The position numbers were made by a program, and so were the translations under genes. This document shows positions 18,574-29,496 of a stretch of 32,516 nt of DNA, one piece after another. Numbering within the stretch: position 1 is the stretch's first letter; the number at the start of each line of letters is the position of its first letter. The stretch comes from a virus (taxonomy: Duplodnaviria > Caudoviricetes): the IMG/VR virus record IMGVR_UViG_3300033508_000213, positions 1 to 32,516 of that record; one strand, given 5' to 3'. The notes beneath the pieces were generated by a model. That model had not been told where the DNA came from and searched no databases. It was given only the letters and a program-made list of their open reading frames with translations.

Positions 18574-19046
18574 TCCGCGTCGTCACCCCCGATGGTTACT
18601 TCGATGTCCACGCTCCCGCTATGTGCCACGTCGAGCTTGTCGCCGTAGCGTTTCGGGTCCCACTTCGAGAGCAGCTTGAGCCGCGTCTCAATCTGCAACT
18701 TCCGGTGCCCCAGCATGTCGCCGCGCTTGATTTCGGTGCCCCACTCCTTTTCCACCTCTTCCATTCCCAACACCGGATTGTCGGCGATCCGCAGGCACTC
18801 GGCCGCGATGGCGTCGTATCCCTCAATCCGCGCGCGCGCGATGCTGGCGGAAAACGTTTCGTCCGCCCCCATCCAATCGGTAACGGTTCTAACAGCAGGC
18901 ATGCGCGGGGAGCGGCAGATTTCGGCCATCGGTTCGCCCTTGGAAAGCCGTTCGCAAATCGCCGCAGCAGTGGCGGGGGTGAACTTGCTCGGGCGTCCGC
19001 GCTTCTTGGCGGGTTTTTTGGCGGAGGGTTTGGTTTTCGCGCTCAT
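18570..19046 (-). CDS. terS: Terminase small subunit
   Basis: GRPSKF...ICERL..GE...IC...MP...TV..W HTH and KLQIETRLKLLSKWDPKRYGDK; overlaps the terL start. Confidence 0.88.
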   Translation of the reverse strand: MSAKTKPSAKKPAKKRGRPSKFTPATAAAICERLSKGEPMAEICRSPRMPAVRTVTDWMGADETFSASIARARIEGYDAIAAECLRIADNPVLGMEEVEKEWGTEIKRGDMLGHRKLQIETRLKLLSKWDPKRYGDKLDVAHSGSVDIEVTIGGDDAE

Positions 19047-19480
19047 GAATGCGGGGTGGATTGGGCCACCATCGGTGGGGCGAGCGCGAGGGAGAGTATT
19101 TTTATAAACTCATCGCGGAGGTGCGCCTCGTGCATGGCGAGCGCGGTTTGCCGTTGGCGGGCGGAATCCACGGTTTGCCAGGTGCGGTTGAACGCCCGGG
19201 CGACCATCTGCATCGGGATACCTGCCGAGCAGCAAACCGCCATGGCGAGAACGCGGGCGGCAGCCGTCGGCGGGCATTCGCGGGTCGGGCTCAGAATTGC
19301 GCGCCACTCGATGCGGCGTTCATCGGCCACGGTTTTGACCACCCGCTCAATGAGCACGCGGGCCGTGGTGATAGATTGCGCGCGGCGGTCAGCGAATGCG
19401 CAGGGCGGGGCGTCTTGCATGGCCCATGGACTAGCAGGTTGTGGCAGCCGTGTCATCGAAATATCGCAGGAAATGTGCAT
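19043..19480 (-). CDS. Putative HTH regulator resembling the DnaA C-terminal domain; candidate late activator
   Basis: ARVLAM......IPMQMVARAFNRTWQTV resembles the DnaA domain IV HTH; start uncertain, chosen after an A/C-rich leader. Confidence 0.45.
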   Translation of the reverse strand: MHISCDISMTRLPQPASPWAMQDAPPCAFADRRAQSITTARVLIERVVKTVADERRIEWRAILSPTRECPPTAAARVLAMAVCCSAGIPMQMVARAFNRTWQTVDSARQRQTALAMHEAHLRDEFIKILSLALAPPMVAQSTPHS

Positions 19481-19569
19481 TTGTAATTGATTTGTGATTT
19501 TGGGCAGGAAGTCGGAGCGGGTGTGAGTCAGCCCTCTTGCTCGCATCGTCAAATCATGATGCGATAATG

Positions 19570-19917
19570 TCATTTTCGCCCCGCGAGAAATCCCCGCAGA
19601 TGGTCGAGAGCCCATGACCACCCATGCGAAGCGGTCTTGCGGCCATCGGGTGATTCCAGCGTGATCCGGTCGATTCTGTCTCCAATCCGCACCGTCCAGC
19701 GCCGGACTTTGCCGGATCGAAAATCGGTCCATTGTAGGCATCCTAAAGCGTCCCCCTGCTTATGCGGTAGATTCTCCGCGTCGGATTCCGCTATTTCACG
19801 GAGGCGTTCGGGCAGGTCGAGCATCCGCCGTTCAGATTGAGCGCGTTGGGAGGCTTTGCCCATTGCGCTGAATCTGAGTCGCTTACGCTCGGCGCGTTGT
19901 TTTCGATAGCTTGCCAC
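19570..19917 (-). CDS. Hypothetical protein starting inside the attI-like site
   Basis: 115-aa ORF with GTG start 5 nt after the stop of the last cassette gene. Confidence 0.6.
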   Translation of the reverse strand: MASYRKQRAERKRLRFSAMGKASQRAQSERRMLDLPERLREIAESDAENLPHKQGDALGCLQWTDFRSGKVRRWTVRIGDRIDRITLESPDGRKTASHGWSWALDHLRGFLAGRK

Positions 19918-19939
19918 GGGTGTTATAATAACGTGTTCT
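19892..19939 (+). repeat. 48-bp direct repeat copy 1; attI-like site heading the array
   Basis: gcgcgttgttttcgatagcttgccacgggtgttataataacgtgttct, identical at 21931-21978; ends in core GTTCTGC (19935-19941); no attC-type palindrome. Confidence 0.7.
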
Positions 19940-20573
19940 GCATAAAGAGATCCGCATCGAGTTCGGCCTGCAGTCGCCGCCTCGCGGTTTCAAAGTGCTT
20001 CGGGTCGCGCTCGATTCCCACGAAGGGGCGGCGGGCGCGGATAGCGGCGATTCCCGTTGTCCCCGTCCCCATGAAGGGATCGACCACGGCACCGGGCGGC
20101 ATGAGTTCCATCAGCTTTGCCATGAGCTTGTCCGGTTTCACCGATGGATGGCCGTGATCGTCGTGGTAGTTCGGCACCGCGATCACGTCGTTTTTCAGCG
20201 CGGGGATGTTGTAGAAGAGGATCGGTTCCCAGTTGTTGAAGCCTTTCAGCTTTCCATTCCGTTGCGTCGATCCTTGGCGCACCCATGCGCCTATCCAGTC
20301 CGGCGTCGGATAGTCACGCATCCCCACCACTCCGCAGAAGGTGGCCACGGGCGAAGTGCCAGCCAGCGGCAGCCAGTTCGGGATTTCCTCGTCCCAGTCC
20401 GCTTTCTTCATGCCATAGGGCGGGTCGGTGATGATGACGCCGAGTTGCAGCGTCGGGAGGATTTCCATGCAGTCACCCAGGAACAACACCACCGAAGAAT
20501 GCAGAACAAGACGCTGCATGGAACGCCGAGGAGCGTCCTTGTCGAGTTCGAGAGTCTTGGGGTCGGCGTCCAT
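19923..20573 (-). CDS. DNA methyltransferase, N6/N4 beta class (cassette 1)
   Basis: ITDPPY, HPSVKP, VVDPFMGTGTT; ATG lies inside the attC-1 arm. Confidence 0.88.
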   Translation of the reverse strand: MDADPKTLELDKDAPRRSMQRLVLHSSVVLFLGDCMEILPTLQLGVIITDPPYGMKKADWDEEIPNWLPLAGTSPVATFCGVVGMRDYPTPDWIGAWVRQGSTQRNGKLKGFNNWEPILFYNIPALKNDVIAVPNYHDDHGHPSVKPDKLMAKLMELMPPGAVVDPFMGTGTTGIAAIRARRPFVGIERDPKHFETARRRLQAELDADLFMQNTLL

Positions 20574-20590
20574 GAGCTTAAGCGTTCGCC
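20501..20590 (+). repeat. attC-like site 1
   Basis: R'' GCAGAAC; GCT[G]CATGG[A]ACGCCGA pairs with TCGGCGTCCATGAGC; R' GTTCGCC. Confidence 0.88.
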
Positions 20591-20868
20591 AGACCAATAA
20601 TATCCCCCTCTTCGTCAAACTCGAAGAGATGATCGCACTCGTCCCACCTCTTCTCTTCTCGGATACACGCAGCTTCAGCCCGCCTCATTTCATCGCGGTC
20701 ATCAGTGGCGGTAGATACCATCATCGCGCCCTCCCATTCCGCGAAGGATGCACGGTATTCTTCGACCGTCCGTATTGGCGGCAAAGGCGAACAAATCGTC
20801 ACATCCAACCCCTCATCACGGGGTTGTTCAACGGTTTCTGGCTTCGATTTTATTTCTTGGTTTGGCAT
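20578..20868 (-). CDS. Hypothetical protein (cassette 2)
   Basis: 96-aa ORF filling the interval between attC-1 and attC-2. Confidence 0.65.
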   Translation of the reverse strand: MPNQEIKSKPETVEQPRDEGLDVTICSPLPPIRTVEEYRASFAEWEGAMMVSTATDDRDEMRRAEAACIREEKRWDECDHLFEFDEEGDIIGLANA

Positions 20869-20912
20869 AGTTTCATTTCTTCGGTTCGGGGTGGATGGAC
20901 TCGGCGTTCTCC
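20786..20912 (+). repeat. attC-like site 2
   Basis: R'' GGCGAAC; GTC[A]CATCC[A]ACCCC pairs with GGGGTGGATGGAC; R' GTTCTCC. Confidence 0.88.
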
Positions 20913-21352
20913 AAGAGATTTGCTACGGCGGCGCGTGGAGTATCTCCGAAGCCTGCGACCGACTCTTGCAGGTTTACGAATCCATCGAGAGTCGCGCACC
21001 ATGCGTTGCCGTCGAGATACACATTGACCTGCGTTTGCCACCAATCAGGAGCCGTGCCTGCGCTGCACGCGAAGTTGCCCGCGGAGCTTGGGCAATAGTC
21101 GTTGTGACATGCCCAGCCGCCGCCGTAGGTCGAAGTTGGACTTCCGCAGTTTGGGCATGGCCCGCGCATGAAGTGGCTCGGAGCGTGATTCCAAGAGTCC
21201 CAGCGGATTGCTTCACCGAATGCCCATCGGTACTTTCCAGTGTCATACACCTTACCCGGAACAAGATGGAGAACAAGTCGCGGCAGATCAACCGCCGGGA
21301 CGTTCGTAGTTTGGACGGTTTCCGCCGCCTCGGGGTCTTGTGGTTTATCCAT
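20873..21352 (-). CDS. Hypothetical protein with a putative Zn-ribbon (cassette 3)
   Basis: CPNC...WACHNDYC; 159 aa. Confidence 0.65.
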   Translation of the reverse strand: MDKPQDPEAAETVQTTNVPAVDLPRLVLHLVPGKVYDTGKYRWAFGEAIRWDSWNHAPSHFMRGPCPNCGSPTSTYGGGWACHNDYCPSSAGNFACSAGTAPDWWQTQVNVYLDGNAWCATLDGFVNLQESVAGFGDTPRAAVANLLENAESIHPEPKK

Positions 21353-21399
21353 GATTTTTCGTGCCGGAGTCCGGCGGTGTCTGCGCTATTGCGTTCTGC
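21268..21399 (+). repeat. attC-like site 3
   Basis: R'' GGAGAAC; GCG[G]CAGA[T]C[A]ACCGCCGG pairs with CCGGCGGTGTCTGCGC; R' GTTCTGC. Confidence 0.85.
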
Positions 21400-21614
21400 T
21401 TTTTAAGGTGAGCTTGCCACGCTTTGTATGCCCAAGGTCGGAGAATTTCCTCGGTGATCGTTTCCCCTTCGGCGTGGTCGAGGAGCCAACAAGCGAACCA
21501 TTCAAGTCCGCTATAGAACTCGCCGCCAACCGCAGAACAAGTCGTCTCATCCAACCCCTCATCTGGTGGCTCTTCGTCGTCTTCCAGCATATCAATGAAT
21601 ACATCTTCACTCAT
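21345..21614 (-). CDS. Hypothetical acidic protein (cassette 4)
   Basis: Start MSEDVF inside attC-4; 89 aa. Confidence 0.6.
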   Translation of the reverse strand: MSEDVFIDMLEDDEEPPDEGLDETTCSAVGGEFYSGLEWFACWLLDHAEGETITEEILRPWAYKAWQAHLKKQNAIAQTPPDSGTKNHG

Positions 21615-21658
21615 GGTCGTTTGGCTTCTATTCGGTGTGGATGGACTCAGCGTTCGTT
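21532..21658 (+). repeat. attC-like site 4
   Basis: R'' GCAGAAC; GTC[T]CATCC[A]AC pairs with GTGGATGGAC; R' GTTCGTT. Confidence 0.85.
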
Positions 21659-21877
21659 TTACAAAAGGCGTTTGATAATCGGGAGCATAAGACCAATACA
21701 GATCGGTCGCCACCATTCAAGATCGCCGGGGCATTTTGCCAGCCACAGAACGGCAGCAATGCAGGCGATCAGTGCGATGGATTCCAAAAGAAAACGAACA
21801 AGGCGTCTCATCCAACCATCACTACGCTGAGTGTCGGCGGGGTCTTCTAGGTGGGGATTGCGTTGTGTGTATTGCAT
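21659..21877 (-). CDS. Small putative membrane protein (cassette 5)
   Basis: 72 aa with two hydrophobic segments; its stop abuts R' of attC-4. Confidence 0.6.
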   Translation of the reverse strand: MQYTQRNPHLEDPADTQRSDGWMRRLVRFLLESIALIACIAAVLWLAKCPGDLEWWRPICIGLMLPIIKRLL

Positions 21878-21917
21878 AGTTTTGTGTCAGTGATGGTGGA
21901 TGGACTCGACGTTCTGG
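21793..21917 (+). repeat. attC-like site 5
   Basis: R'' AACGAAC; GTC[T]CATCC[A]ACCATCACT pairs with AGTGATGGTGGATGGAC; R' GTTCTGG. Confidence 0.88.
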
Positions 21918-21930
21918 GAAGAGATCACTT

Positions 21931-21978
21931 GCGCGTTGTTTTCGATAGCTTGCCACGGGTGTTATAATAACGTGTTCT
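21931..21978 (+). repeat. 48-bp direct repeat copy 2; internal attI-like site
   Basis: Identical to 19892-19939; core GTTCTCT at 21974-21980. Confidence 0.7.
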
Positions 21979-22894
21979 CTGCCTGACTGTCGGGCTTCCC
22001 GTCAGCGGTTTCGGCAGCGATTCTTTGGCTTTCAGACGCAAGCGCGTCGGACTCCGCCATACAAAAGAGTCCGCACGATACAGCGAAGTCAGGCCCGGTC
22101 GGGTCTCCCTCCTCGATCTCGTCAAGATAGATTTCGGAGCGCACTCCTTTGCGGGTGATCCGGTTGATGGCCACGCCGAACTCGCGTTCGTATCCCGCGA
22201 TCCGCCAGTAGATTTCGGGGAAGTGTTTTCGGGTGCGTTTCCAGTAGTTGATATTGTCGCGGGCTTTCACGCACCCGATGCAGTTGTTGTTGAGGAAGCC
22301 CAGCAGATACATCAGCGGCAGCGCGATTCCCTGCCGCGCCAGAATGCCGAAGCAGTCTTCCTTGGTGAGGTGTTTTTCCACCAGCGGGCATTCGAGGATT
22401 CTTTCGGTGTTGAGAGCCTGCCACTGAGCCACGCGCCGCCGTTCGGTGGCGGTGTATCCGTAGATTTCCACGTCGCCGACTCGCCACACCTTGTCACCAG
22501 GGGTGCGCTTCATCTCCCCCGTGCATGGCGCTCCTTGATGGCTGACTAAGAACCGGCGAGCCTCGAACACTTCCCATGTCGTGTCGTATTTATCCGACTT
22601 CAGGATTGTCACCGGCTTTCCGAACCACGCTTCGCATTCGCCTATGAAGCGGAGATTGTCGGGATGTTCGGCACCGGGATTGGTGTAGTAGATTTCCACG
22701 GCATCTCCGTATTTCTCGATTGCCATCTTCGTGGCCACCGCAGACGCGGCACCGCAAGAGAATCGTGAGATCACCCGGCCTGAGCGACGAAGAGAAGAGA
22801 TGCCGGAAGATGACGGCAGAGAACAAGAGATCGCTGCCAATGACTCCCGCGAGGGAGTCGGTGACGAGGCGGAGTTGTAGGGCGCGGGATTCAT
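21962..22894 (-). CDS. PAPS-reductase / adenine nucleotide alpha-hydrolase family protein (cassette 6)
   Basis: PP-loop-like FSCGAASA, EHPDN.RF, APCT..MK, NNCIGCVK; start MNPAPYN with ATGA overlap inside attC-6. Confidence 0.75.
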   Translation of the reverse strand: MNPAPYNSASSPTPSRESLAAISCSLPSSSGISSLRRSGRVISRFSCGAASAVATKMAIEKYGDAVEIYYTNPGAEHPDNLRFIGECEAWFGKPVTILKSDKYDTTWEVFEARRFLVSHQGAPCTGEMKRTPGDKVWRVGDVEIYGYTATERRRVAQWQALNTERILECPLVEKHLTKEDCFGILARQGIALPLMYLLGFLNNNCIGCVKARDNINYWKRTRKHFPEIYWRIAGYEREFGVAINRITRKGVRSEIYLDEIEEGDPTGPDFAVSCGLFCMAESDALASESQRIAAETADGKPDSQAENTLL

Positions 22895-22915
22895 GGCAGG
22901 ATACTGACGTTCTCC
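22818..22915 (+). repeat. attC-like site 6
   Basis: R'' AGAGAAC; ATC[G]CTGCC[A]ATGA pairs with TCATGGCAGGAT; R' GTTCTCC. Confidence 0.85.
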
Positions 22916-23523
22916 AGATAATGTCCCGCGATTCCGCAGGCTTTCAATTTGGCGGCACATTCGCTGCCGTAGGCTATCAGCACGCTTGGAGCGCCAGCGG
23001 TGCCGCCGCGTTTCCCCTCCTTCGTGTAGAAGTTGATCCGTCCTTTCACCCAGAGGAATGCGCTGGCATGTTGCCACACCCACGGGAAGAATGCTTTCGT
23101 TTCGGTGCGGGCGAAGATGAGCGCGATTCCGTCGCCGTGATTGGCCAGCCTCCGCATCCACCGCTCAGTTTCGTTCCCGTATGGCGGGTTCATCCACACG
23201 CGGCCTTCCCATGGCTTCAGTAGTCCATTGTCGGCCATGGTGTAGTGCTTCGCGGCGGTGTCCCATGGGCGGGGCATTGGCGAGCATGGGTCCAAGTCGA
23301 ACGGCCCAAGTGCGCGGATGATTTCCGGCGGTGTCAGCCAGTCTTCTTTCCCGGTAGTCCGGTCATGCGCGAATCCAATATCCAAGACGGCCTGCGATGG
23401 AGAACAAGTCGCTGGTGGACAACCGCCTTCTGCGGTGTCTTCAAGTTGTAGGGTATCAGGAGTTTTCATACTTCGTTGGAGTCTTGTGTCTGCGGATTTT
23501 GGGGGAGTAGCGGAGATGGTCAT
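22891..23523 (-). CDS. Phage Dam-type N6-adenine DNA methyltransferase (cassette 7)
   Basis: DWLTP, FDLDPC, NGL..PW.GRVWMNPPY, ARTET, GRINF; alternative start at 23469. Confidence 0.85.
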   Translation of the reverse strand: MTISATPPKSADTRLQRSMKTPDTLQLEDTAEGGCPPATCSPSQAVLDIGFAHDRTTGKEDWLTPPEIIRALGPFDLDPCSPMPRPWDTAAKHYTMADNGLLKPWEGRVWMNPPYGNETERWMRRLANHGDGIALIFARTETKAFFPWVWQHASAFLWVKGRINFYTKEGKRGGTAGAPSVLIAYGSECAAKLKACGIAGHYLENVSILP

Positions 23524-23580
23524 TGTTTGGAGTCGGCTGGTTGGTTCATGCCCACGGGCCGGATTTGCTCATCGTTCACC
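23399..23580 (+). repeat. attC-like site 7 (hybrid; arms do not pair)
   Basis: R'' GGAGAAC with a typical left arm and R' GTTCACC, but the arms are not complementary and the site is long (182 bp). Confidence 0.65.
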
Positions 23581-24137
23581 AGAGATTTCAGAGCTGTCGC
23601 CAAGAGCCGCGCCGATTGGCGGGCGTCGGCCAGTGGCTCATGCGCCGGGAGTTCATGTGGAAGTCGCTCGTAGGTGGCCATCGGGTCCATTCCCGCAGCG
23701 AGCATGATCGACGCGATCTCGTGCATTGGATACGGACCATCCCAGTTGCGGGAACCGTCATCCCGGATGCACGCGCTCACGAATGACGCTTCGACGGGCC
23801 AGCCGCATTCCACGAACATCCTCGCCTTTTGCTCCACGGCTTTCATCCACTCATGCCAGAAGGCATCGCGGACACCTCTGGGATTGGTGATATTCTTCGA
23901 TGCCGTGCTTTGGGTCACATTCGCCATGACCCATTCACGATCCGAGAACTCGCCATCGGCGCGGTCTGGATGACAGTGATAGGCGAACTCATGGAGCGGC
24001 GATCCGTCTTCATCATAGATTCCCCCGGCTACGGAGAAGGCTTGCCCGTGAAGGCCGATAGATTCCACGTCGAACACGAAGAATGGTACACAAGTGCCTG
24101 ATCCCAACGGGGACCGCTCTGTTGTCGAAGTTTTCAT
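23520..24137 (-). CDS. DEDDh (DnaQ-like) 3'-5' exonuclease (cassette 8)
   Basis: ExoI FVFDVES, ExoIII HEPLADA. Confidence 0.75.
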   Translation of the reverse strand: MKTSTTERSPLGSGTCVPFFVFDVESIGLHGQAFSVAGGIYDEDGSPLHEFAYHCHPDRADGEFSDREWVMANVTQSTASKNITNPRGVRDAFWHEWMKAVEQKARMFVECGWPVEASFVSACIRDDGSRNWDGPYPMHEIASIMLAAGMDPMATYERLPHELPAHEPLADARQSARLLATALKSLVNDEQIRPVGMNQPADSKQ

Positions 24138-24205
24138 TTTGTTTGGTAGTTTGATTTGATTGCGGAGTGGCGTTGTCCGCCGGTCCCTCCACTTGGACGT
24201 TATGC
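24085..24205 (+). repeat. attC-like site 8 (hybrid/degenerate)
   Basis: R'' degenerate GGTACAC; left arm CCTGATCCCAACGGGGAC is a near copy of the attC-9 left arm; R' GTTATGC. Confidence 0.65.
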
Positions 24206-24991
24206 CAAGAGATCGCGCTGAACGGTTTGCACGCGTCGGTTGGCGGTTTCACAGTGATCCGCATCCCGTTCGATGCAGACGAAGTGCCGGTCGGTCATGC
24301 GAGCCGCTTCGGCCAGCGTGCCACTCCCAGCGAAGGGATCGAGGATCGTCCCGCCAGGCGGGCAGACGACGCGGCAGAGTTGCGCGATGAGATCCACGGG
24401 CTTTTGCGTTTGATGCTCCTTGTCGTCGGCTCTCACGCGGTTGCACCGCAGCACGTTCGCGGTTCCCTTGTTGTGGTATTTCGGGCTTCCGGCGGTCATG
24501 TGCATCACCAGTTCATGGCAGGCACGGAAGCCGTTCCCGAGTCCCATGTTGCCCTTGTCCCACACGATCAGGTTTTGATACCGGAAGCCTGCGGATTCCA
24601 CGGCGGGAATCAGGTTCGGGATCATGCGCCAATCGCAGAAGATCAGCAGCGATCCCTCGCCTTTCAGTAGCCGCATGGATTCCACCGCCATTTCACGGAT
24701 CAGCCACACAAGGCCAGCGGTTCCCATGTTGTCCCCCACGAACCATCCGAAGTTGCGGATATTCTCAGAGCGTAGCCCTTGCCCTTTCGCTGCCGTCCGT
24801 TGCGCTTCACCCACGGAGCCGGAGCAGTAGGGCGGATCGGTGATGACCGCATCGATGCAGCCATCAGGCATCCCGCGCATGATTTGGAGACAGTCGCCGT
24901 GCAGGATTGTATCCACCGGCAAAGAGGCATAACAAGAGTCTGATCCCAACGGGGACTCGCCTTGCTGTTCAAGTTCAGGGGTGGTTATCAT
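24200..24991 (-). CDS. DNA methyltransferase, N6/N4 beta class (cassette 9)
   Basis: ITDPPY, IVWDK, HQTQKP, ILDPFAGSGT; start MITTPE inside attC-9; TAA stop within the core of attC-8. Confidence 0.9.
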   Translation of the reverse strand: MITTPELEQQGESPLGSDSCYASLPVDTILHGDCLQIMRGMPDGCIDAVITDPPYCSGSVGEAQRTAAKGQGLRSENIRNFGWFVGDNMGTAGLVWLIREMAVESMRLLKGEGSLLIFCDWRMIPNLIPAVESAGFRYQNLIVWDKGNMGLGNGFRACHELVMHMTAGSPKYHNKGTANVLRCNRVRADDKEHQTQKPVDLIAQLCRVVCPPGGTILDPFAGSGTLAEAARMTDRHFVCIERDADHCETANRRVQTVQRDLLA

Positions 24992-25048
24992 GATTTTTGA
25001 GGTGTCGGAGTGGCGCTGCCGTCCCCGTGGGATAGGCCAGCGTTCTCG
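24927..25048 (+). repeat. attC-like site 9
   Basis: R'' GCATAAC; CT[G]ATCCC[A]ACGGGGAC pairs with GTCCCCGTGGGATAG; R' GTTCTCG. Confidence 0.88.
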
Positions 25049-25323
25049 GAATAAACCCACCCTTCGTTTCCGGCGGATTGCAGTATTGCCAGAGCTTCGC
25101 ATTGCGCGGCGATTAGCTCGTTACCATCTGCCACGGTGATCGGCTGGACCAATCCGCATCGCTCGTCGGTAGCGCGATCCTGACACGCGACATAAACGTC
25201 AGCGGCTTCATAGAGCCTGCGGAGGGCATTCAAGACCCGCGAATAAGTCGCTCCTGAGCAACCATCACCGGCCTCCTGTTGTGGTGAGTCTTCGGGCTTC
25301 GATGTATCATTTTCGGTTTGCAT
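24988..25323 (-). CDS. Hypothetical protein (cassette 10)
   Basis: 111-aa ORF; ATGA-coupled to the next gene. Confidence 0.65.
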   Translation of the reverse strand: MQTENDTSKPEDSPQQEAGDGCSGATYSRVLNALRRLYEAADVYVACQDRATDERCGLVQPITVADGNELIAAQCEALAILQSAGNEGWVYSENAGLSHGDGSATPTPQKS

Positions 25324-25369
25324 AGTTTTTCGTGGTTAGTGGTGAGGGTGCCAGAGCTAGTCGTTCTCG
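25238..25369 (+). repeat. attC-like site 10
   Basis: R'' degenerate CGCGAAT; GCT[C]CTG[A]GC[A]ACCATCACC pairs with GGTGAGGGTGCCAGAGC (one mismatch); R' GTTCTCG. Confidence 0.8.
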
Positions 25370-25860
25370 GAAGAAATCCGTTTCCGGCTGGCCCGCTCAT
25401 CTCGGCGGCGCATCGCTTCGGCGAACTTCGCTCCCCATGCAGAGATTTCCCCGGCGAGGTGCCGATATTCCGCAACATCCTCCGGCGCTTCCGATCCGCT
25501 TTTCACTCGCTCTAAAATGTCCGCGAGCATTTCCTTCGCAGTCACGCTTTCGAGCTGCTTGATTCTCTCGTGTTGGCGGATGCTGTGAGCCTGCGCACGG
25601 TTGCGCTCAGCCATGAGCTTTTCCACCATCGGCGCACGGTCTTTCAGATCCGGGCGGGCGGCGATGATCCGTTTGATTGCGACCTGGTTGTCGTGGTTGG
25701 CTTTCCACATATCGCGTTCGACTTCGGCTCGGGCGGCCATTTCTACCGCGCATTCCCATTTGTTCCTCCAGCCCTGTTCATGGCACTCGGAAGACCGAGA
25801 ACAAGGCACTGGAGAGGAACCGCCTTCAGCGGCTTCGTTGAGTTGTGGGGTAGCATTCAT
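25357..25860 (-). CDS. Hypothetical coiled-coil protein (cassette 11)
   Basis: 167-aa ORF; start inside attC-11. Confidence 0.65.
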   Translation of the reverse strand: MNATPQLNEAAEGGSSPVPCSRSSECHEQGWRNKWECAVEMAARAEVERDMWKANHDNQVAIKRIIAARPDLKDRAPMVEKLMAERNRAQAHSIRQHERIKQLESVTAKEMLADILERVKSGSEAPEDVAEYRHLAGEISAWGAKFAEAMRRRDERASRKRISSEND

Positions 25861-25914
25861 TGATTTTCTTTGGTGGAGGTTTCCGTCGGCGGTCCCTCAG
25901 TTTTGGCGTTCTGC
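25796..25914 (+). repeat. attC-like site 11
   Basis: R'' CGAGAAC; ACTG[G]AG[A]GG[A]ACCGCC pairs with GGCGGTCCCTCAGT; R' GTTCTGC. Confidence 0.85.
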
Positions 25915-26174
25915 CCAAGACCGAGGATGTATTCGGCGTCGATTTGCAGGACGAATAAGAGCGTCCAGAAGTTTTCAAGGTTCGGCATTCTTCGACCTGT
26001 TTCCCAATGCGATATTGCAGCGGCGGGTAACCCCGTCCGCTTTGCAAGGTCGGCTTGCGACCATTGGTTGAGTTCGCGTGCCTCGCGTAGTCGTGAGCCT
26101 GTGAACTTTCGGTCAAGGAAGAATAAGACATGGGAGGCAACGCCTCGGGGGTATGTTTTCGGATCGTAGCTCAT
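25857..26174 (-). CDS. XRE-family HTH transcriptional regulator (cassette 12)
   Basis: RLREARELNQWSQADLAKRTGLPAAAISHWETGRRMP; start MSYDPK inside attC-12. Confidence 0.85.
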   Translation of the reverse strand: MSYDPKTYPRGVASHVLFFLDRKFTGSRLREARELNQWSQADLAKRTGLPAAAISHWETGRRMPNLENFWTLLFVLQIDAEYILGLGQNAKTEGPPTETSTKENQ

Positions 26175-26204
26175 TTGTGGCGTGCCTCCATATTGGCGTT
26201 CAAA
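26118..26204 (+). repeat. attC-like site 12 (terminal; R' overlaps the ssb stop codon)
   Basis: R'' degenerate GAAGAAT; ATG[G]GAGGC[A]ACGCC pairs with GGCGTGCCTCCAT; R' GTTCAAA. Confidence 0.82.
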
Positions 26205-26643
26205 ACGGTAAATCTTCCCCGTCGTCGTAAGTGGCGGGTTGGCTTGTTGGCGCGGGCGGCATGCCTGGGGAGGTGCTAGGCTGGCTGTAATGGGGATTCT
26301 GGTATCCCTCCCGGTCGGATGGAGGAACGCTGTCACGCTTCGGTTCGATCAGGTGCATGCTCTCGCACGTCACCTTTGTTTTCCGTTGCTTCTTACCAGA
26401 TTTGTCTTCCCATTCCTCCTGCGAGAGGTGGCCTGTGATGCCCAGTCGGTCGCCCTTCTGGACGGCCTTCTTTGCAAGGTCGGCTGTCGCGCCCCATAGC
26501 GTGACGCCAACCCACACGGTTTTCTTATTTTCTCCCCATCCGTCATCCACGGCCAGCGTGAGCTGTGCCACGGACTTGCCGCTGGGGGTGTATCTCAATT
26601 CTACTTCGCCGCCGACGCGGCCGATGATGTTTACGTTGTTCAT
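26200..26643 (-). CDS. ssb: Single-stranded DNA-binding protein
   Basis: MNNVNIIGR...ELRYTPSGK, OB fold, C-terminal DLPF. Confidence 0.95.
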   Translation of the reverse strand: MNNVNIIGRVGGEVELRYTPSGKSVAQLTLAVDDGWGENKKTVWVGVTLWGATADLAKKAVQKGDRLGITGHLSQEEWEDKSGKKQRKTKVTCESMHLIEPKRDSVPPSDREGYQNPHYSQPSTSPGMPPAPTSQPATYDDGEDLPF

Positions 26644-27365
26644 GCGTGTTCTATGGTTGAGGCTTCAATCAGGCGGCCCATGAGAGGCGCGCCTCGGTCG
26701 CGGGTGAGTTGGTTGCTGGCGAGCATTTCGAGCGGGCTCGTGTTCGAGGTCCAGAGTACTGGCAGATCATGCGTCTTGCGGTGATCGAGCACGCCGAAGA
26801 GGTAGCGCTCGACGGCTGGTGTCCATGTGTTCTTGCCGATGTCGTCGAGGATCAGTATCCCCGCGTTGCGGCAGCGCCCCATGTATTTCTGTGCCTCTTT
26901 GGCCTCCGGTCGGTCACCGCGCATGTCGTCAACCCTATCCTGAAACTCAACGGCCGTAGTCCACACCAGTCGGTGGCCGGCGAGAATCAGACGCTTGGCG
27001 AGCAGAGCAAGACACCGGGTCTTGCATTCCCCCGCCCCGCCGACGATTCCAAGCCATTTCAGGCGTGACGGTTGCCAGGCTTCCACACGGAGCCACAGCC
27101 CCGCATTGAACTGCGGATGGTTGATCCGGGTCCGGATCATTTCAGGCGGTATCGAGTCGAGCCGGGCCTCGCGGGCCGATAGCTCGCGCTGCCGCTCCAA
27201 GTGTTCTTTCCGCATGCGCTCGTCATCGGCTTCACGGGCCGAGCACTCGTCGCATTGGTTCGCGCGGACTATTTTGGGAAACAGGCGGGCGAGTTCCGCA
27301 AGCTCTTCGCTCACAGGTTTTCCACAGGAACAAAGCCCGGGCATGGCTGAAATGGTTGTGCTCAT
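26640..27365 (-). CDS. DnaC/IstB-like ATPase (helicase loader)
   Basis: N-terminal CxC...CxxC, variant Walker A GGAGECKT, Walker B LILDDIG, WTSN, RL. Confidence 0.8.
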   Translation of the reverse strand: MSTTISAMPGLCSCGKPVSEELAELARLFPKIVRANQCDECSAREADDERMRKEHLERQRELSAREARLDSIPPEMIRTRINHPQFNAGLWLRVEAWQPSRLKWLGIVGGAGECKTRCLALLAKRLILAGHRLVWTTAVEFQDRVDDMRGDRPEAKEAQKYMGRCRNAGILILDDIGKNTWTPAVERYLFGVLDHRKTHDLPVLWTSNTSPLEMLASNQLTRDRGAPLMGRLIEASTIEHA

Positions 27366-28544: not shown

Positions 28545-29200
28545 GACAGCGCGAGTTCTCTCGCCTCCTTCCCGAGAAGCATCGGCATGATCTCAGCGCG
28601 GCGGCTGCCGTAATAGATCACGAAGCGGTCGAGCGCGTCGGCCATTTTTGCCGTGTAGGCCTCCGGTTCGCAAAGCGCGATGGGCATCGCCATTCCCGGA
28701 CAGTAGCTGGCGAAATACCAAGGGATTCCCAGTGCTGCCATGGAGAAATGCACCTGCGGAAAGTAGGTTTTCGGCAAACCGCCTTCGATCACATACGCGG
28801 CGTGGTTCTTGGCCATCGGGCATTTCAATTCGAGACCGGCCACCAGAATTCCGTCTCGATAGATCAAACCATCCGGCGAGCATCCAACGACTCCACCGTA
28901 GCGGTTTTCATTCGTCACGAATCCAACCTCGGTCACCTCCAACCCCATGACCCGGGTGAATTCGGCGCGGGCGTCCGCTTCCAGTTCGTTGCCCCGTTCG
29001 GTGTGCGCATTGCCCATGAACGCAGGCAGCTCGTCGGGCCTGATGCATTCCGCCGTTAGCTCGATCGCATAGGAATCCCACTGACTCGAATCCTTGCCGG
29101 TGGGGGTTAGGATTTTCTCAGCGTTCGATGCGGTCACACGTCCCTTGCGAGCGCGGAACCATTCCTCGGATTGCTGAATCATTTCGGGCCAGATCTTCAT
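28541..29200 (-). CDS. YqaJ / lambda-exonuclease family protein
   Basis: QQSEEWFRARKGRVTAS, GCSPDG, LELKCP, Y.PQV; AGGAGG upstream of ATG 29200. Confidence 0.88.
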   Translation of the reverse strand: MKIWPEMIQQSEEWFRARKGRVTASNAEKILTPTGKDSSQWDSYAIELTAECIRPDELPAFMGNAHTERGNELEADARAEFTRVMGLEVTEVGFVTNENRYGGVVGCSPDGLIYRDGILVAGLELKCPMAKNHAAYVIEGGLPKTYFPQVHFSMAALGIPWYFASYCPGMAMPIALCEPEAYTAKMADALDRFVIYYGSRRAEIMPMLLGKEARELALS

Positions 29201-29496
29201 ACGCCCTCCTTTTCTGCAAAGTCTACCCACTTGGCCACGATTGCGGCCATGTTAGATAATCTCGATTCAAGTTTTGCGAACTCCTCCAAGGCATCATTCG
29301 CAACCATGGCGGCACCGCAAACGTTGTCGTCGTTCGTGTCTGAAATCGCCTCGCGGAGCAATCCGGCAATCGTTCCAATTTCTTCGATCACGCATGGGAT
29401 TTCCCATCGAACGTCATTAAGCATGTCAGAGCAGATCGGATCATCGTCTCCGCAATCGCAGCGATCACCCTCGCATGTTGGAAGATGTGATTTCAT
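29197..29496 (-). CDS. Hypothetical protein
   Basis: 99-aa ORF with ATGA overlaps on both sides. Confidence 0.6.
   Translation of the reverse strand: MKSHLPTCEGDRCDCGDDDPICSDMLNDVRWEIPCVIEEIGTIAGLLREAISDTNDDNVCGAAMVANDALEEFAKLESRLSNMAAIVAKWVDFAEKEGV

Follow-up and report, generated by a model that had tools for sequence, protein, structure and literature searches.

Cassette genes of a tailed phage run antisense to integron-type recombination sites and cross them in the asparagine frame

The 32,516-base IMG/VR record IMGVR_UViG_3300033508_000213 is a tailed-phage contig, analysed here over its whole length as a 32.5-kb linear piece (the window). It holds an array of 12 attC-type recombination sites (10 intact and two hybrid) and two identical attI-like sites, in which ten of the 12 cassette genes read across the GTT/AAC crossover with Asn in frame and end 2-18 codons beyond it. 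From the sequence it is highly probable that this is a phage integron array whose bottom-strand genes cross as in-frame Asn, and in which shuffling of the IntI type likely keeps both the termination of genes and the starts downstream of them. The frame rule itself is confirmed as real and general among the viral contigs examined.

Recombination sites of the window

The attC top strand is the + strand at all 12 sites, with R'' on the left and the crossover G↓TT (the arrow marks the cut) on the right, and the cassette genes are all antisense to it. The structure scanner, which has no frame term, looks for R'' AAC, a 5-nt spacer, L'' with an extra base at position 4, a second extra base, L' and G↓TT. 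Ten of the 12 sites pass it, with 6-7 of 7 L-box pairs, the extra base at L'' position 4 and the second extra base, and shuffled sequence gives 0.09 matches per 6.5 kb (at most 1 in 100 shuffles). A stricter scanner with the spacer fixed at 6 nt found only 4 array sites and was replaced. GTT is present in 12/12 sites, R'' is AAC in 9, AAT in 2 and CAC in 1, the spacers (5/5-6 nt) are unpaired, and the long loops are A/C-rich. In minimum free energy (MFE) folds the expected end-to-end stem appears at about half of the sites, and the bottom strand is not consistently lower than the top. Folding energies are modest, so the case for attC is built on the geometry of the boxes and on the switch points rather than on energy. 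With at least two same-strand attC sites within 4 kb and intI not nearby on the 32.5-kb linear piece, the array is a CALIN, a cluster of attC sites lacking an integron integrase.

Two further crossovers, 19935 and 21974, lie at the ends of the two copies of an exact 48-bp repeat that forms no hairpin (19892-19939 = 21931-21978). By position, geometry and switch points this repeat is considered attI-like, a name given because its geometry and place equal those of the attI of intI-bearing relatives. The sites are listed below; tails run from the Asn to the last residue before the stop, and ATG offsets, in nt, are counted from that stop.

19892..19941, +, attI-like site a; its G↓TT crossover lies at 19935; tail NTLL (stop 19925-19923); joint 19934->20906
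20501..20590, +, attC1; tail NA; next ATG +7
20786..20912, +, attC2; tail NAESIHPEPKK; next ATG +7
21268..21399, +, attC3; three extra bases; tail NAIAQTPPDSGTKNHG; next ATG -5
21532..21658, +, attC4; no gene reads in; NAESIHTE and stop kept
21793..21917, +, attC5; no gene reads in; NVESIHHH and stop kept
21912..21974, +, gene-less 63-bp unit; ~19 bp of cassette end fused to an attI-region copy
21931..21980, +, attI-like site b; repeats the 48 bp of a exactly; crossover 21974; tail NTLL; loose contig ends 21979, 21974
22818..22915, +, attC6; tail NVSILP; ATGA
23399..23580, +, attC7; hybrid, 182 bp, unpaired arms; tail NDEQ...KQ; ATGA
24085..24205, +, attC8; hybrid; the only site without an Asn-frame stop
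24927..25048, +, attC9; tail NAGLS...QKS; ATGA
25238..25369, +, attC10; R'' AAT; tail ND; next ATG +36
25796..25914, +, attC11; tail NAKTE...ENQ; ATGA
26118..26204, +, attC12; R'' AAT; NANMEARHK and stop kept, with ATGA; final site of the array

The original prediction numbered its attC sites up to 12; ten are intact, and sites 7 and 8 proved to be hybrids with non-pairing arms. Site 7 (23399-23580) resembles the product of a deletion that fused the right arm and leader of one attC, in frame, with the loop and left arm of a second attC; the ATGA overlap survives there, and a close homologue of the gene begins at the second ATG (23469). An isolated attC-like scanner match (score 14.6) lies outside the array at 29157-29273 on the minus strand. 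The mid-array attI duplicate (21912-21978) includes the first codons of ORF115, the open reading frame (ORF) of 115 amino acids (aa) that bounds the array. Replacements of attC by attI occur in class 1 integrons, and the mid-array copy resembles such an event. On the + strand of the attI-like sites, antisense to the cassette genes, TG-T-TATAAT occurs at 19915-19930 and 21954-21969, and TATAAT/TAGAAT recurs in the attI of IntI-bearing phages; the motif may serve as a binding box or as a promoter of the extended -10 type.

Reading frame of the cassette genes

Strand is fixed by Pfam/PHROG matches; the starts, stops and coupling of the genes listed below are predicted from sequence.

19923..20573, -, cassette 1 gene, N6/N4 DNA methyltransferase; probably starts in attC1; reads through as Asn into attI-like site a
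20578..20868, -, cassette 2 gene, 96 aa; read-through
20873..21352, -, cassette 3 gene, 159 aa; read-through
21345..21614, -, cassette 4 gene, 89 aa; read-through
21659..21877, -, cassette 5 gene, hydrophobic product of 72 aa; ends on its own stop immediately ahead of the crossover
21962..22894, -, PAPS-reductase-like gene (phrog_424); ATGA start in attC6; read-through into attI-like site b
22891..23523, -, Dam-type adenine methyltransferase; start 23523 (ATGA) or 23469; read-through
23520..24137, -, 205-aa gene; exonuclease-like motifs by eye, zero library matches; read-through
24200..24991, -, N6/N4 DNA methyltransferase; begins at an ATGA in attC9; its TAA stop shares bases with the crossover triplet
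24988..25323, -, 111-aa gene; read-through
25357..25860, -, 167-aa gene; read-through; cassette missing (25361->25907) in contigs of runs X3 and X7
25857..26174, -, XRE-type helix-turn-helix (HTH) regulator; read-through

The cargo thus includes three DNA methyltransferases, the Dam type among them, a PAPS-reductase-like protein and an XRE-type HTH regulator. Coding score alone gave no support to the cassette 5 gene; conservation of the cassette in loci L013/L015 does.

Eight of the Asn read-throughs enter attC and two (both with the tail NTLL) enter the attI-like repeat, and ten of ten in a single frame has p = 5e-5 if they are independent. One of the remaining two genes stops on a TAA overlapping the triplet (24200), and the other has its own stop (21659). 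An in-frame ATG lies inside 12/12 sites, 15-39 codons before R''. R'' is crossed as 'CS' in 8 cases, 'RLV' in 3 and 'VLF' in 1, which is uneven (p = 0.04). ATGA overlaps occur at 5/12 attC (sites 6, 7, 9, 11 and 12), and at 4/8 of those that are read into; in the other four of these the stop-to-ATG offsets are +7, +7, -5 and +36 nt.

The ten read-through tails and three unread tails quoted in the original prediction are all present, and its statements that sites 4, 5 and 12 keep an Asn-frame stop and that site 8 has none agree with the sequence. Its description of ten of 12 genes reading through as Asn is right, except that it assigned to attC the two that enter the attI-like repeat. It also held that nothing upstream reads into site 12: the flanking gene for the single-stranded DNA-binding protein SSB indeed does not read through, although its stop TGA (26200-26202) touches the site, overlapping the first A of AAC. 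The attI-like sites, the phage setting and the lack of intI had escaped the original prediction.

The frame rule in other viral contigs

Further loci were gathered by protein and by pattern scans of viral contigs, with the same scanner. By longest open frame, 322 unique array sites with room divide at R' into 240 in the Asn frame, 7 and 29 in the other two and 46 uncalled; the Asn frame is thus used in 240/276 called sites, and 14 of the 29 stop on a junction TAA. R'' frames at 320 sites are 111/86/61 with 62 uncalled, a skewed distribution (p = 7e-4). This is the tabulation of R' against R'' proposed in the original prediction, and random frame use at R' is refuted by it; that N-termini cross R'' in three frames is correct in that all are used, with the qualification that their use is skewed in the window and in relatives alike.

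By coding score, 334 junctions give 183 Asn read-throughs versus 4 in other frames, 11 junction TAA and 48 own stops, 10 of them overlapping the first A; 21/334 genes stop on the crossover triplet itself. The 285 called proteins form 245 families, and the Asn frame is used in 212/232 read-through families. Stops inside the site, counted by frame with the Asn frame first, are found in 317/158/191 of 336 sites versus 197/189/199 in shuffles, and in 161/85/106 of 172 site clusters. Unread sites keep the Asn-frame stop in 46/46 cases. Its position among 328 sites varies: codon 3 in 57, in the arm in 53, later in 202, and none in 16. Independent loci fetched by ORF115 gave 31 Asn, 4 other, 2 TAA and 4 uncalled, and their 41 new sites have stops 40/20/23 by frame.

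Strand calls by longest open frame were dropped, because antisense shadow frames in GC-rich sequence led to 4/8 window cassettes being miscalled. A hexamer coding score trained on phage replaced them for strand and placed 212 of 246 on the bottom strand, 21 on the top and left 13 uncalled. Minority top-strand HTH-like or two-gene units occur within antisense arrays (top-strand coordinates: L238 11070-11549, L241 10391-10823, L243 14293-14520). In L016, three near-identical 44-bp minimal attC-like sites (119-162, 986-1029, 2724-2767) alternate with long sites.

Bacterial arrays of the same attC family provide a control. A genome scan gave 11 matches, 8 labelled Verrucomicrobiota and 3 others without a site passing the scanner. 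The Verrucomicrobiota arrays belong to the same attC family as those of the phages, and their IntI is canonical and divergent. By longest frame, 41 of their 45 cassettes are top-strand and 4 bottom-strand; the phage-trained hexamer score is less clear (23 top, 17 bottom, 5 uncalled). Bottom-strand stops in the bacterial sites are 71/69/74 of 98 by frame, and 39/40/42 of 64 without one repeat family. An Asn-frame stop is present in 310/329 phage sites versus 39/64 Verrucomicrobiota sites (Fisher p = 3e-11). Since the host sites carry no bias, the bias belongs to the phage arrays and not to the attC family. Several Verrucomicrobiota IntI frames (L227 6967-8235, L220, L223, L228) have N-terminal extensions of ~100 aa or more. 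The likeness of the attC sites points to Verrucomicrobiota as the putative host of the phage.

Exchange of cassettes at the crossover

Neighbour switches, joints and loose ends, all from contigs, place exchange exactly at G↓TT, as in attC sites. Among eight pairs sharing the same cassette end, the left neighbour differs in 6 with the break at G↓TT, and the tail after Asn differs in those six wherever a gene was called. Most switches have only 5-6 letters in common. L241 and L242 share intI and attI and differ in first cassette and cassette order; window cassette 5 is 80% identical to L013/L015 from crossover to crossover; and homologues of the PAPS-like cassette bear four different tails after the same Asn. 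The original prediction that the start travels with its own cassette and the C-terminal tail comes from the neighbour is supported by these swaps; tails that stay with the gene whatever the neighbour, which would have spoken against it, were not seen.

Contigs of runs holding the phage show whole-cassette deletions (19934->20906 in X3; 25361->25907 in X3 and X7) and loose ends that coincide with, or lie a few bases from, the crossovers 20584, 21974, 23574, 25042 and 25363. In runs X1, X3, X4 and X6 another attC precedes 23573. The left arm of attC8 matches the attC9 right arm at 7 of 7 pairs, and a joint 24151->25012 gives it that matching arm; by eye, the intact form has an Asn-frame TGA at codon 13 and an ATG directly after in the frame of the downstream gene. 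Site 8, the lone exception of the window, is thus a hybrid whose intact form obeys the rule.

Where the homology of the cassette proteins ends was also considered. The Dam-like protein (191 aa) aligns with 120 homologues from ~25 to 185, with R'' at ~21 and Asn at 186, and short homologues begin with their own Met at a position lacking Met in the window protein. The PAPS-like protein (310 aa) aligns from ~35 to 286, with R'' at 24 and Asn at 307. Homology was expected to begin after R'' and to end at the Asn: the start side fits in both proteins and the end fits in Dam. Among Dam homologues, 47/119 have Asn at the usual protein end; in many of these (among P0121-P0240) Q, K, P, N or R follows, residues rarely encoded by the studied sites, and other site families or R'' read-through may be involved.

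Integrase, attI and ORF115

An IntI match (TIGR02249) is present in 7/49 array-bearing phage records, 4 of them above cut-off. In all seven, intI lies left of the array and shares the strand of the cassette genes, antisense to the attC top strand. A few tens of bases separate it from an attI-like site upstream, which reads TA(T/G)AAT-N5/6-G↓TT. These attI sites also give an Asn-frame stop (e.g., after NS, NREL or NTDSTT). In host genomes, the IntI of arrays of the same attC family is present beside attC. A single origin of phage IntI is not supported: with 14 of the 24 rows viral, an unrooted tree requires 3 or more label changes. An exact search of viral contigs with the attI core yielded 2 matches in an unrelated coding region without array, which are ascribed to chance. 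Among features of a complete integron, the window has an attI-like site at the end of the array and lacks both intI beside it and Pc-driven top-strand genes: its genes are on the bottom strand, and sigma-70 consensus was not listed at attI on the + strand.

The slot of intI is occupied in the window by ORF115.

19570..19917, -, ORF115, conserved 115-aa gene in the slot of intI of related complete phage integrons

ORF115 has 267 homologues, and its alignment fetched 25 viral loci (3 already in the array set, some near-duplicates). An attC is on the expected strand in 18/19 of these with at least 1.5 kb upstream, and an attI-like motif lies just upstream of ORF115 in 21/25. It stands directly downstream of attI in L043, L089, L101, L111, L112 and L255-L278, and the genes beyond vary. 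ORF115 gave zero Pfam, PHROG, NCBIfam, PDB or Atlas sequence matches, and its predicted fold (mean pLDDT 87) gave zero significant matches in PDB, viral models and a wide search (mostly residues 1-51). At 115 aa and with zero NCBIfam matches it does not qualify as an integron integrase, and its reading as an IntI fragment was weak (hmmsearch E >= 0.19; hhalign probability 8.9% over 28 columns on the IntI insertion). Neither the 9 host genomes nor the 7 IntI phages searched, every one of them incomplete, gave a copy of it.

Model and alternative explanations

In the sequence, a cassette extends between successive G↓TT crossovers. With the cut confined to R', it has its own attC at the 5' end of its gene, and this attC holds both an Asn-frame stop and the candidate start of that gene. 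The stop-to-start distance is constant on shuffling because both sit in the same attC, and the R'' frame would be free because R'' is never cut. The neighbour sets the C-terminal tail only, and attI obeys the same rule. Shuffling would ask one thing of the gene upstream: to reach the crossover in the Asn frame or to end before it. Selection would remove cassettes crossing in the other two frames and keep an Asn-frame stop in every site. The array would be transcribed with the phage replication operon, from the SSB side towards the terminase, and not from Pc. Recombination would be performed by an integron integrase, which some related phages encode just downstream of attI; in the window phage, where ORF115 takes the slot of intI, it would act in trans from the Verrucomicrobiota host or a co-infecting phage. 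The cargo would then form a swappable kit for anti-restriction and DNA modification.

Several observations weigh against this model or qualify it. IntI or a remnant of it was not found in the window by tblastn, and 0/25 ORF115 records have IntI above cut-off (the contig of one record has a 193-bit match away from this locus). The arms of sites 7 and 8 fail to pair (2 and 1.5 of 7), and whole-site folding is weak at many sites (z from +1.5 to -3.5), often no better than shuffles. By coding score, 25 of the 334 junctions have top-strand genes and 63 are uncalled. The ATGA overlap occurs at 59/134 junctions with stop and ATG both in the site. PAPS-like homology ends ~21 residues before the Asn, an exact Asn end being seen only for Dam. 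Joints internal to loops also occur (24151->25012 in X1, X2, X3 and X6; 21325->23486; 21822->22816). All joints, those at crossovers included, are from assembled contigs at 90% likeness where misassembly is possible, and one has a 24-nt side. Hybrids and loop joints mean that non-IntI exchange or misassembly also occurs. The original prediction that shuffling preserves termination and coupling, the latter often as ATGA, is thus supported for termination, the stop being near-universal in sites, and for overlaps at five window sites; tight ATGA coupling is not general.

A stronger version of the model, less likely than not, would be a phage-domesticated class of integron that shuffles the operon of the phage itself, with attC and attI turned into standard connectors of stop and start, IntI recruited by phages several times, and the small ORF115 protein of an integrase-free platform recruiting or controlling a trans-acting IntI at attI.

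It is rather unlikely that the phase is a by-product of cassette birth, in which an integrase recombined at an AAC replacing or adjoining the stop of a gene, the phase being inherited and the site stops ancestral leftovers. Dam homologues that end at the Asn position, 47 of the 119 with Asn there, and the 21 genes that stop on the crossover triplet fit such an origin, as does the reuse of a few attC and leader families on different genes. Leaders encoded by attC (MQTENDTSKP..., MDAD...) recur at the head of different gene bodies across phages (L241, L242, window 20501-20573 and 25238-25323), which suggests that sites are reused to build new cassettes. Integron insertion outside att sites is known (10.1101/2022.09.11.507474) and could seed new cassettes; this is the chief competing account of where the phase comes from. 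However, the Asn lies at varying distance from the conserved core in PAPS-like cassettes, the stop positions are varied, all 46 unread sites and the attI sites keep a stop, and host sites of the same family show no bias. Birth and selection are compatible and not mutually exclusive.

It is improbable that the array is a fossil, i.e., former IntI substrates now moved by the phage RecT/YqaJ on short homology, with the frame a matter of ordinary operon selection. RecT and YqaJ are encoded in the window and IntI is not found there, and hybrid sites 7 and 8, the duplicated attI and the loop-internal joints would suit such exchange; but most switches fall at G↓TT with their 5-6 shared letters, 10/12 sites, although coding, still have paired arms and extra bases, and relatives retain intact intI. 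That attC calls, gene calls or metagenomic assembly make the pattern is barely credible: the shadow frames did mislead the longest-frame test and the junction of window site 8 is unlike its form in four runs, yet the site null is very low, gene strand is set by library matches, the same frame-blind code finds no bias in bacterial arrays, and the rule recurs in loci fetched by protein.

Setting in the phage genome

Library matches assign the major head protein, a head-tail adaptor and the terminase subunits to one flank of the array. The other flank encodes SSB, an IstB/DnaC-like ATPase, YqaJ and RecT; the genes of both flanks are on the minus strand, and SSB and ORF115 are the boundaries.

26200..26643, -, SSB gene, flank; TGA stop overlaps the attC12 crossover triplet

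An Rfam scan of 19000-27000 gave zero matches at E <= 1, promoter and terminator scans of the window yielded near shuffle levels, and no RNA data set holding the phage was listed.

Relation to known integrons

Canonical integrons (PMC4889954, PMC5027507), in the parts of these sources covered, share with the phage array the attC anatomy, the G↓TT crossover and attI at the array end; in the relatives intI is likewise divergent from the attC top strand, and the attC family is that of Verrucomicrobiota chromosomal integrons. They differ in that the phage genes lie on the bottom strand, co-oriented with intI, start inside their own attC and end inside that of the neighbour, the role of Pc is not needed, and the window has no intI. 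Phage CALINs, i.e., integrase-free attC clusters with DNA methyltransferase cargo, 5/6 sites of which were recombined by IntI1, have been described (Qi et al., 2023; PMC9892861); the sections covered give no antisense genes, coding attC or frame rule, and the window array adds the platform of attI and ORF115. In ORF-11/ORF-18 of attI1 and short ORFs in attC (PMC8876359, in part), a frame crosses the crossover, the inserted cassette gives the stop, and the crossing frame aids translation of the next gene by coupling, as proposed here; there, however, a top-strand peptide of 11-18 aa is involved at attI only, whereas the phage has full-length bottom-strand genes at every junction. Synthetic protein-embedded attC (Nivina et al., 2020; PMC7439510, in part) also double as coding sequence and still recombine, as shown for the synthetic sites; those are engineered internal linkers, and the phage sites would be their natural counterpart at termini. 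In the inverted-integrase integrons of the Treponema type (PMC4889954, PMC13323075, as far as covered), intI and cassette genes are also co-oriented, but intI there is oriented as attC, whereas the intI-attC geometry of the phages is regular (intI opposite the attC top strand in 7/7 mapped relatives) and only the genes are reversed. A literature search, mostly outside subscription papers, did not find antisense frame-locked cassettes, and the supplementary attC tables of PMC9892861 could hold examples. Phage CALINs, stop borrowing by ORF-11 and synthetic coding attC are thus already known, and antisense, frame-locked phage cassettes appear to be new within integrons.

Biological meaning

The accepted view of integrons is of bacterial devices in which promoterless genes are set in the sense orientation relative to a Pc promoter. 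Here the same chemistry appears wired in reverse, rearranging a phage operon through recombination sites that are also protein-coding punctuation. The integrase is likely able to reorder phage genes without breaking translation, which would provide a site-specific route to phage genome mosaicism and to the exchange of anti-restriction methyltransferases. Hundreds of frame-locked cassettes with close non-cassette homologues make cassette origin testable by comparison, and the sites may serve as natural models for translation-preserving recombination sites.

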